DNA of 64,000 nucleotides, from the NCBI RefSeq assembly GCF_988243305.1, contig NZ_OZ547137.1. One strand, given 5' to 3'. Every line of letters starts with the position of its first letter. Positions within the stretch are counted from its first letter, which is position 1. The stretch is from a plasmid. Under the pieces are notes generated by a model. That model saw only the letters and a list, made by a program, of their open reading frames with translations, searched no databases and was not told the DNA's origin. Made by a program: the position numbers and the translations under genes. Below are positions 37,507-38,181 of the stretch, piece by piece.

Positions 37507-37555
37507 GAAGATGGGGGTTCGCGCCCATTTACTCCCAAAGTCTCACCTTGCTTAT
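37507..37555 (+). repeat. left copy of a ~45-bp inverted repeat flanking the serine recombinase gene
   Basis: gggggttcgcgcccatttactcccaaagtctc matches the reverse complement of 38101..38145 at ~85%. Confidence 0.7.
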
Positions 37556-37569
37556 GTAATTAATTGAAT

Positions 37570-38181
37570 TTATTTAGAAAACGTTGCAATTTTAGCATCA
37601 TTTTTTATTGTTCTTTTTAACCTGAAGTACGTCGATCGAGAGATACCTGTTTTTTCTGTCACACTGCCCAGAGATTCTCCCTGTGATATAAGCTCCAACG
37701 CTGTAGGCGTTCGTGGATGCTTCTTCCTGCCAAATTTTACGCCTGCGGCAAGTGCCGCTATTCTTCCGCCGTTTGTCCGCTCCAGAATACGCTCACGTTC
37801 CGCTTCAGCTACAGCAGCAAGGATTTGGATAACCATTTTGCCCATTGTCCCTTCTGTACTGAGACCGTTCTCCAGGAACCGGATGGCGATCCCCTTTTTG
37901 TAACAGCTATCAACCACACGGATCATGTCAGCAGTGTTACGCCCCAGTCGGTCCATTTTTGTACAGATGATTACGTCGTCTTTCTCTGCACGGGCCAACA
38001 ACCGCTGTAGTCCTTCCCGTTCATCAGTTGCGCCAGTCATAATATCCGTAAAAATACGATCTTCCCGTACCCCGGCATTTTTTAGCTCCGAGATTTGATG
38101 TGCTAAGAGAGAGACTTTTGGAGGAAATGGGCGCAGAACCCCATAATGGTGCGCCGCAGAGAGCCTGCTCACTGATACCAT
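37570..38181 (-). CDS. serine recombinase (resolvase/invertase family) with aberrant N-terminus
   Basis: Core motifs DRIFTD, KMDRLGRNTADM and C-terminal HTH; the N-terminus YGVLRPFPPKVSLLAHQ replaces the expected YARVSTxxQ catalytic-serine motif. Confidence 0.75.
   Translation of the reverse strand: MVSVSRLSAAHHYGVLRPFPPKVSLLAHQISELKNAGVREDRIFTDIMTGATDEREGLQRLLARAEKDDVIICTKMDRLGRNTADMIRVVDSCYKKGIAIRFLENGLSTEGTMGKMVIQILAAVAEAERERILERTNGGRIAALAAGVKFGRKKHPRTPTALELISQGESLGSVTEKTGISRSTYFRLKRTIKNDAKIATFSK
38101..38150 (-). repeat. right copy of the inverted repeat, inside the 5-prime coding region of the recombinase ORF
   Basis: rc reads ggggttctgcgcccatttcctccaaaagtctctc. Confidence 0.7.

Follow-up and report, generated by a model that had tools for sequence, protein, structure and literature searches.

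Here we report that positions 37513-38142 of the 64,000-nucleotide plasmid sequence analysed (contig NZ_OZ547137.1 of assembly GCF_988243305.1; hereafter the window) are best explained, with a probability that we put at about 90%, as a 630-bp inert, non-autonomous internal-deletion derivative of a ~3.9-kb Tn3-family transposon, inherited vertically. A sequence-only reading of this region had described a serine recombinase gene between inverted repeats and had offered, among other possibilities, a miniature element of the Tn3-family type whose resolvase is truncated, and the remnant of an inactivated recombinase. These two descriptions turn out to name the same thing, and correctly so: the segment carries two terminal inverted repeats (IRs) and a resolvase gene that has lost residues 1-17. 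Coordinates are collected in Table 1.

Table 1. Positions in the window of the transposon relic, its parts and its immediate surroundings.
Feature	Position	Strand	Description
Older, diverged solo transposon end of the same type	36884-36951	+	81% identity over 68 nt to IR-R plus ~27 bp of interior; tip to the left
Left flank, 84 bp from within a 771-bp ychA-like leading-region gene (nt 322-405)	37429-37512	+	Cut at the tip of IR-L
IR-L, terminal inverted repeat at the left end of the Tn3-family element	37513-37555	+	Tip GGGGG; GGGGGTTCGCGCCCATTTACTCCCAAAGTCTCACCTTGCTTAT; 3' of the tnpR stop codon
Truncated tnpR remnant	37570-38102	-	nt 50-582 of the intact gene, i.e. TnpR residues 18-193 and stop codon
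Chimeric 203-aa open reading frame (ORF)	37570-38181	-	RefSeq: intact gene for a 'recombinase family protein', WP_395597331.1
IR-R, right terminal inverted repeat	38100-38142	-	Tip rightward, CCCC on the + strand; inner end touches the tnpR remnant
Internal deletion junction	38101-38103		tnpR nt 50 joined to the inner edge of IR-R; TG microhomology (BLAST overlap, three-way view)
Right flank, ~125 bp from within a plasmid 3'-5' exonuclease gene	38143-38267	-	Cut at the tip of IR-R; followed by 5'-truncated umuD

The inverted repeats of ~85% identity described earlier are present, as a repeat search of the window returned 34-nt arms (37511-37544 and 38111-38144) with 85% ungapped complementarity, and on careful pairwise alignment the match grows to ~43 nt once two single-base gaps are allowed. 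The limits first proposed, 37507-37555 and 38101-38150, located the repeats but took in a few flanking bases that match by chance (AT beside both tips); those in Table 1 were set by base counting and by comparison with intact relatives. A search allowing up to 3 mismatches placed a 24-nt core of the repeat at exactly two positions in the 64-kb window, with no additional copy, and at no position in 100 shuffles. Terminal IRs of the Tn3 family are ~38-45 bp long and begin GGGG; the two repeats end in GGGGG and GGGG and are collinear with the termini of intact Tn3-family transposon copies. IR-L is collinear with IR-L in four of these (L002, L012, L013 and L014) and differs from that of L002 at 4 positions, three of which lie in the core and were unseen in the six copies examined, four of them intact and two related or degenerate; the fourth is common to L007. 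IR-R is identical to the functional IR-R at 42 of 43 positions (window 38101-38143 against L002 9867-9909, 97.7% by pairwise BLAST).

The intact parent, best seen in NZ_CP045715.1 (L002; record positions 15320-19220), is a compact replicative transposon of ~3.9 kb with the order IR-L, tnpR, res, tnpA, IR-R. Its tnpR encodes a 193-aa recombinase (WP_001196199.1) and is separated by a 156-bp intergenic region from the divergent tnpA, which encodes a 1012-aa Tn3-family transposase (WP_086218989.1) scoring 604 bits against NCBIfam NF033527 (transpos_Tn3; cut-off 500). Other intact copies are found in NZ_CP045713.1 (L012), NZ_CP166875.1 and Escherichia albertii NZ_CP043272.1 (L014). Perfect 5-bp target duplications surround the copies in L002 (AACAT) and L014 (TATTA), which identifies the IRs as the functional termini of a real Tn3-family transposon. 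The parent is rare: among 5426 complete E. coli genomes only 2 (3 records) hold the 3268-bp interior, with its tnpA segment, at full length; a third E. coli genome has a tnpA copy interrupted by an IS3 element, and a dozen more records contain fragments of the interior. We found no published name for it.

Two further observations concern relatives of this transposon. In NZ_CP045713.1 the intact parent (434-4510 of L012) lies inside yacA of a yacAB toxin-antitoxin pair, and in L004 and other plasmids yacB immediately adjoins the 3'-5' exonuclease gene, the host gene of the relic in the window; this suggests that the neighbourhood of yacAB and the exonuclease gene has been targeted repeatedly by transposons of the parent type. 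In NZ_CP067313.1 (5150-5270 of L006), a relative with 87.6% tnpR identity, a Tn21-type transposon (IR GGGGTCGTCTCAGAAAACGGAAAATAAAGCACGCTAAG) is inserted 88 bp upstream of tnpR, at a point within the presumed res region, and the cognate tnpA side has been replaced. Global alignment of the relic's IR-R with this Tn21-type IR gave nothing meaningful, and the likeness visible by eye is confined to the terminal GGGGT and an inner motif containing C-T-A-G.

Comparison of the window with the parent locates a single internal deletion. Window 37505-38102, comprising IR-L and tnpR nt 50-582, matches L002 6001-6598 at 98.5% (pairwise BLAST), and together with IR-R the retained parts keep the order and orientation of the parent, with which they are collinear except for the absence of L002 6599-9866. 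These 3268 bp hold tnpR nt 1-49 (codons 1-17), the 156-bp intergenic region with res, and all of tnpA. A tblastn search of the window with the parent TnpA returned no match, and BLAST of the whole parent against the window returned no other piece of tnpA or res. A Tn3-type DDE transposase of ~1000 aa is thus present in the parent and absent from the window, which makes the window element a derivative rather than an autonomous member of the family, and with the intergenic region and tnpR codons 1-17 it has lost both the res site and the active resolvase on which cointegrate resolution depends. In a three-way view the junction reads …GATTTGATGTG/CTAAGAG…, and its TG microhomology is characteristic of illegitimate deletions. 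On the IR-R side the breakpoint lies only a few bases from the inner end of the repeat, a precision that a random deletion would be somewhat unlikely to reach. A nested second copy inserted in tnpR was considered and rejected: the tip of IR-R points away from tnpR and abuts exonuclease sequence, and it is the inner end that abuts tnpR.

The recombinase ORF is a product of this truncation. Its residues 1-13 are the exonuclease gene fragment read out of frame, residues 14-27 are read through IR-R, and only residues 28-203 correspond to TnpR (18-193). The earlier view that the right repeat encodes residues ~11-27 is thus right in that the repeat is coding, with the residues now narrowed to 14-27, and a repeat inside the 5' coding region is a property of the chimeric ORF only; the genes of the intact element include neither IR. 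In the γδ and Tn3 resolvases, Ser10 is the nucleophile and Arg8 an active-site residue, both within the YARVS motif. The start of the ORF, MVSVSRLSAAHHYGVLRPFPPKVSLLAHQISELK, is unlike that of intact TnpR; Pfam Resolvase (PF00239) matches the ORF at model positions 16-144 only; ORF residues 26-188 align with residues 16-178 of γδ resolvase (1GDT, E = 5.7e-44); and the Tn3 resolvase 5CY1 likewise aligns only from residue 16. With alignments beginning at position 16-18, the predicted product lacks Arg8 and the Ser10 nucleophile, TnpR residues 1-17 having been replaced. The replacement of the expected catalytic-serine motif, already described in the sequence-only reading, is confirmed against intact TnpR, PF00239 and 1GDT, and in none of these comparisons does the ORF align end to end or possess a normal N-terminus. 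Downstream of the lesion, the 1GDT alignment leaves the E-helix and the C-terminal helix-turn-helix intact, and unrelated residues take the place of β-strand 1 of the catalytic domain.

An ORF that stays open and retains its dimerisation helix and helix-turn-helix could have been domesticated as a catalytically inactive DNA-binding protein, for instance as a repressor or as a dominant-negative partner of another resolvase. The same plasmid does have a second such gene (window 4046-4603, + strand), apparently intact, Tn3/γδ-like and with the full catalytic motif. Its DNA is only 66-70% identical to the relic's tnpR, and no Tn3-family transposase was seen beside it among the listed ORFs. The conservation of the relic, at least 99.7% among its carriers, would also fit a retained function, but it is high because the plasmids share a recent common ancestry. 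Expression is doubtful: the native tnpR promoter region is deleted along with res, a promoter scan found a single weak site, which equals chance expectation, no Shine-Dalgarno sequence is visible upstream of the ATG, and that ATG is itself an out-of-frame codon inside a gene fragment. Nor does the window contain a cognate res site, and β-strand 1 of the catalytic domain is replaced. The retained coding part differs from the intact copy at 4 positions; two of these are polymorphisms shared with other copies, and each of the two lineage-specific changes alters an amino acid (M37I; D128G, which falls in the conserved ERTNxGR motif). Together with the substitutions in the IR-L core these changes point towards decay, but they are too few for a statistical test of relaxed selection; as a counterpoint, the frame is still open across 203 codons and carries an intact RefSeq gene call. 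We therefore judge domestication to be very unlikely indeed, and the ORF is probably neither expressed nor functional.

The 1.1-kb region is 99.7-100% identical in 22 plasmids of PLSDB, all from E. coli, and the named carriers are all of the pAA type, including those of the O104:H4 strains C227-11, 2011C-3493 and 2009EL-2050/2071. The complete configuration was recovered from 35 of the 5426 complete E. coli genomes, each time as one collinear 1101-nt alignment of at least 99.7% identity, and the deletion junction from four metagenome contigs, of which three long ones are collinear with the window and the fourth (L011) is discussed below. Within PLSDB the deletion junction and both flank junctions are confined to the same 22 plasmids, no full-length element was found at either flank junction, and plasmids beyond the carriers match only the part of the window from 37505 or 37511 to 38105. 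No deletion junction was found at any other site in PLSDB, the 5426 E. coli genomes or the metagenome contigs, nor did any of the 35 carriers coincide with the 15 records that match the deleted tnpA segment.

These records also bear on the third possibility raised by the sequence-only reading, a Hin/Gin-like invertible switch in which the internal recombinase inverts the segment at the flanking repeats. The superficial architecture, a serine-recombinase-family ORF between inverted repeats, is that of such a switch. We searched the assemblies for both orientations of the 37.5-38.15 kb segment and found a single one throughout: the inverted orientation was absent from the 22 plasmid records, the 35 complete genomes and the 3 long metagenome contigs, assemblies in which mixtures within a culture would be invisible. 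The recombinase has lost residues 1-17, among them the Ser10 nucleophile and Arg8, and its nearest structural relatives are resolvases (5.7e-44 for γδ, against ~1e-19 for DNA invertases). The inverted repeats of a Hin/Gin-type segment are dyad-symmetric crossover sites of 26 bp (hix/gix), and a degenerate pattern for these found no match at up to 3 mismatches, which is a weak test; stronger evidence is that the repeats themselves are the termini of a 3.9-kb transposon that makes target duplications. The idea of an invertible segment is accordingly rejected, its probability being close to nil.

The sequences beyond the two tips belong to different genes. The ychA-like and exonuclease genes, of which the relic's flanks are internal fragments (Table 1), are found elsewhere in different contexts, and the flanking pentamers (AAGAT and ATAAT) differ, so that the 5-bp target duplication left by the intact copies is lacking and the relic did not simply insert at this site as a unit. 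Simple insertion of a mini-element was rejected on the same two grounds. The metagenome contig L011 (1161 bp) retains the right-hand side in an earlier state. It has the same deletion junction and the same junction between IR-R and the exonuclease gene, but here the gene runs on for 577 bp, back to its start; the contig is too short to include the left flank. The exonuclease gene thus already contained the gutted element when it was truncated against umuD.

In the RefSeq annotation of one carrier the segment is located between aggD/aggC, of the AAF/I fimbriae, and umuDC/parMR. Between the upstream region of aggD and the relic sits a third transposon end of the same type (Table 1), older and diverged, which fits repeated activity of this kind of transposon in the region. 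Several other features of this patch were noted. Window 37162-37428 matches, at 96-97%, sequence that elsewhere adjoins transposase genes of the IS91 family (IS1294), and the match stops abruptly at 37428, where the ychA fragment starts, marking a further mosaic junction. On the other side, window 38268-39790 holds a degraded umuDC operon, in which umuD is without its 5' end and fused to the exonuclease fragment, and umuC, labelled 'frameshifted; internal stop' in RefSeq, consists of a pair of overlapping ORFs (38645-39538 and 39234-39773). Upstream of the AAF/I chaperone gene aggD, on the minus strand, window 36758-36811 contains nine units of the hexanucleotide repeat (ACTTGA)n, ending 7 nt before the ATG. 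In plasmids and contigs that are otherwise ~99% identical, the repeat has 15 units (O104:H4 C227-11, L005), 11 (L008), 6 (L009) or 8 (L010). It is a microsatellite of variable length that lies in the promoter or 5' leader of the fimbrial operon, and its variation could modulate or phase-vary AAF/I expression.

Might the relic nevertheless be an active mini-transposon of the TIME type, non-autonomous and mobilised in trans by a cognate Tn3-family transposase? Both terminal IRs are kept, IR-R is near-identical to functional copies and was spared exactly by the deletion, and known TIMEs such as IS101 did arise from Tn3-family elements and can be moved in trans (PMC13367494). Against this, the 5-bp duplication is absent, and in every collection searched the deletion junction occupies the same single site. 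A cognate tnpA is encountered very rarely and was found in none of the listed carriers, IR-L has acquired three lineage-specific substitutions in its core, and the res site is gone. At 630 bp, the relic also exceeds the 50-500 bp given for MITEs and TIMEs (PMC13367494). We consider an active element of this type very unlikely. There is likewise only a slim chance that the relic becomes mobilisable, or drives rearrangements of the adjacent AAF/I fimbrial genes, when a cognate transposase enters the cell, or that a resolvase without its serine is produced and binds DNA or exerts a dominant-negative effect.

Based on these observations, we favour an inert, vertically inherited deletion derivative and propose the following history. 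A single illegitimate deletion of 3268 bp, at a TG microhomology, fused tnpR nt 50 to the inner boundary of IR-R, removing the N-terminus of the resolvase with Arg8 and Ser10, the res region and the whole transposase gene. The sequence comparisons establish the identity of the parent, both endpoints of the deletion, the missing catalytic residues, the unrelated flanks, and the single site and orientation. The remnant is unable to move or recombine by itself, because it has no transposase and no res site and its resolvase fragment has no nucleophile. Since its ends are now joined to unrelated gene fragments without a duplication, this patch of the plasmid must have been rearranged several times. 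Probably the element inserted into the exonuclease gene, its left flank was exchanged precisely at the tip of IR-L, and later the exonuclease gene was cut short against umuD. This order is inferred, and so is the exchange at the IR-L tip, the outcome that would be expected from a transposase-mediated adjacent rearrangement or from recombination between two copies. Vertical inheritance in the pAA-type plasmids of enteroaggregative E. coli would have followed.

The biological weight of the relic is small, as it is a decayed element in a rearrangement-rich patch of pAA-type plasmids, the plasmid of the 2011 O104:H4 outbreak among them. What is new is a deletion derivative, not remarked on before, of a rare Tn3-family transposon, together with a correction to annotation: WP_395597331.1, called a 'recombinase family protein', is here better treated as a pseudogene or chimeric ORF without an active site. 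The biology is otherwise that of ordinary plasmid decay. As unique sequences, the deletion junction and both flank junctions are handy lineage markers for this plasmid family, and the relic documents a route by which Tn3-family elements decay towards IR-only derivatives of the TIME type.

Several known systems resemble the relic in part. Compared with the transposon of NZ_CP045715.1, the window copy is 3268 bp shorter, lacks the target duplication and has additional substitutions in IR-L and tnpR. The γδ (Tn1000) and Tn3 resolvases (1GDT, 5CY1) share with its ORF most of the catalytic domain, the E-helix and the helix-turn-helix; in the ORF, fold residues 1-15, including the equivalents of Arg8 and Ser10 in YARVS, are replaced by unrelated sequence. 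The Hin, Gin and Cin switches likewise place a small serine recombinase gene between inverted repeats, but the relic differs from them in having no nucleophile, no hix/gix-like sites, a single orientation and repeats that are transposon termini. TIMEs have Tn3-type IRs and no transposase gene, measure 50-500 bp and are found at several sites with 5-6-bp direct repeats (PMC13367494), and IS101 is a 209-bp γδ derivative that has kept a functional res site (PMC4133298, PMC13367494). What they share with the relic is the reduction of a Tn3-family element to its pair of terminal IRs around a short interior, with the transposase gene absent. The relic stands apart from them at 630 bp, above the TIME size range, with a resolvase gene fragment instead of res, no direct repeat and one site only. 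It behaves like no active system, and its structure is that of a Tn3-family remnant approaching the IR-only state of TIMEs such as IS101.
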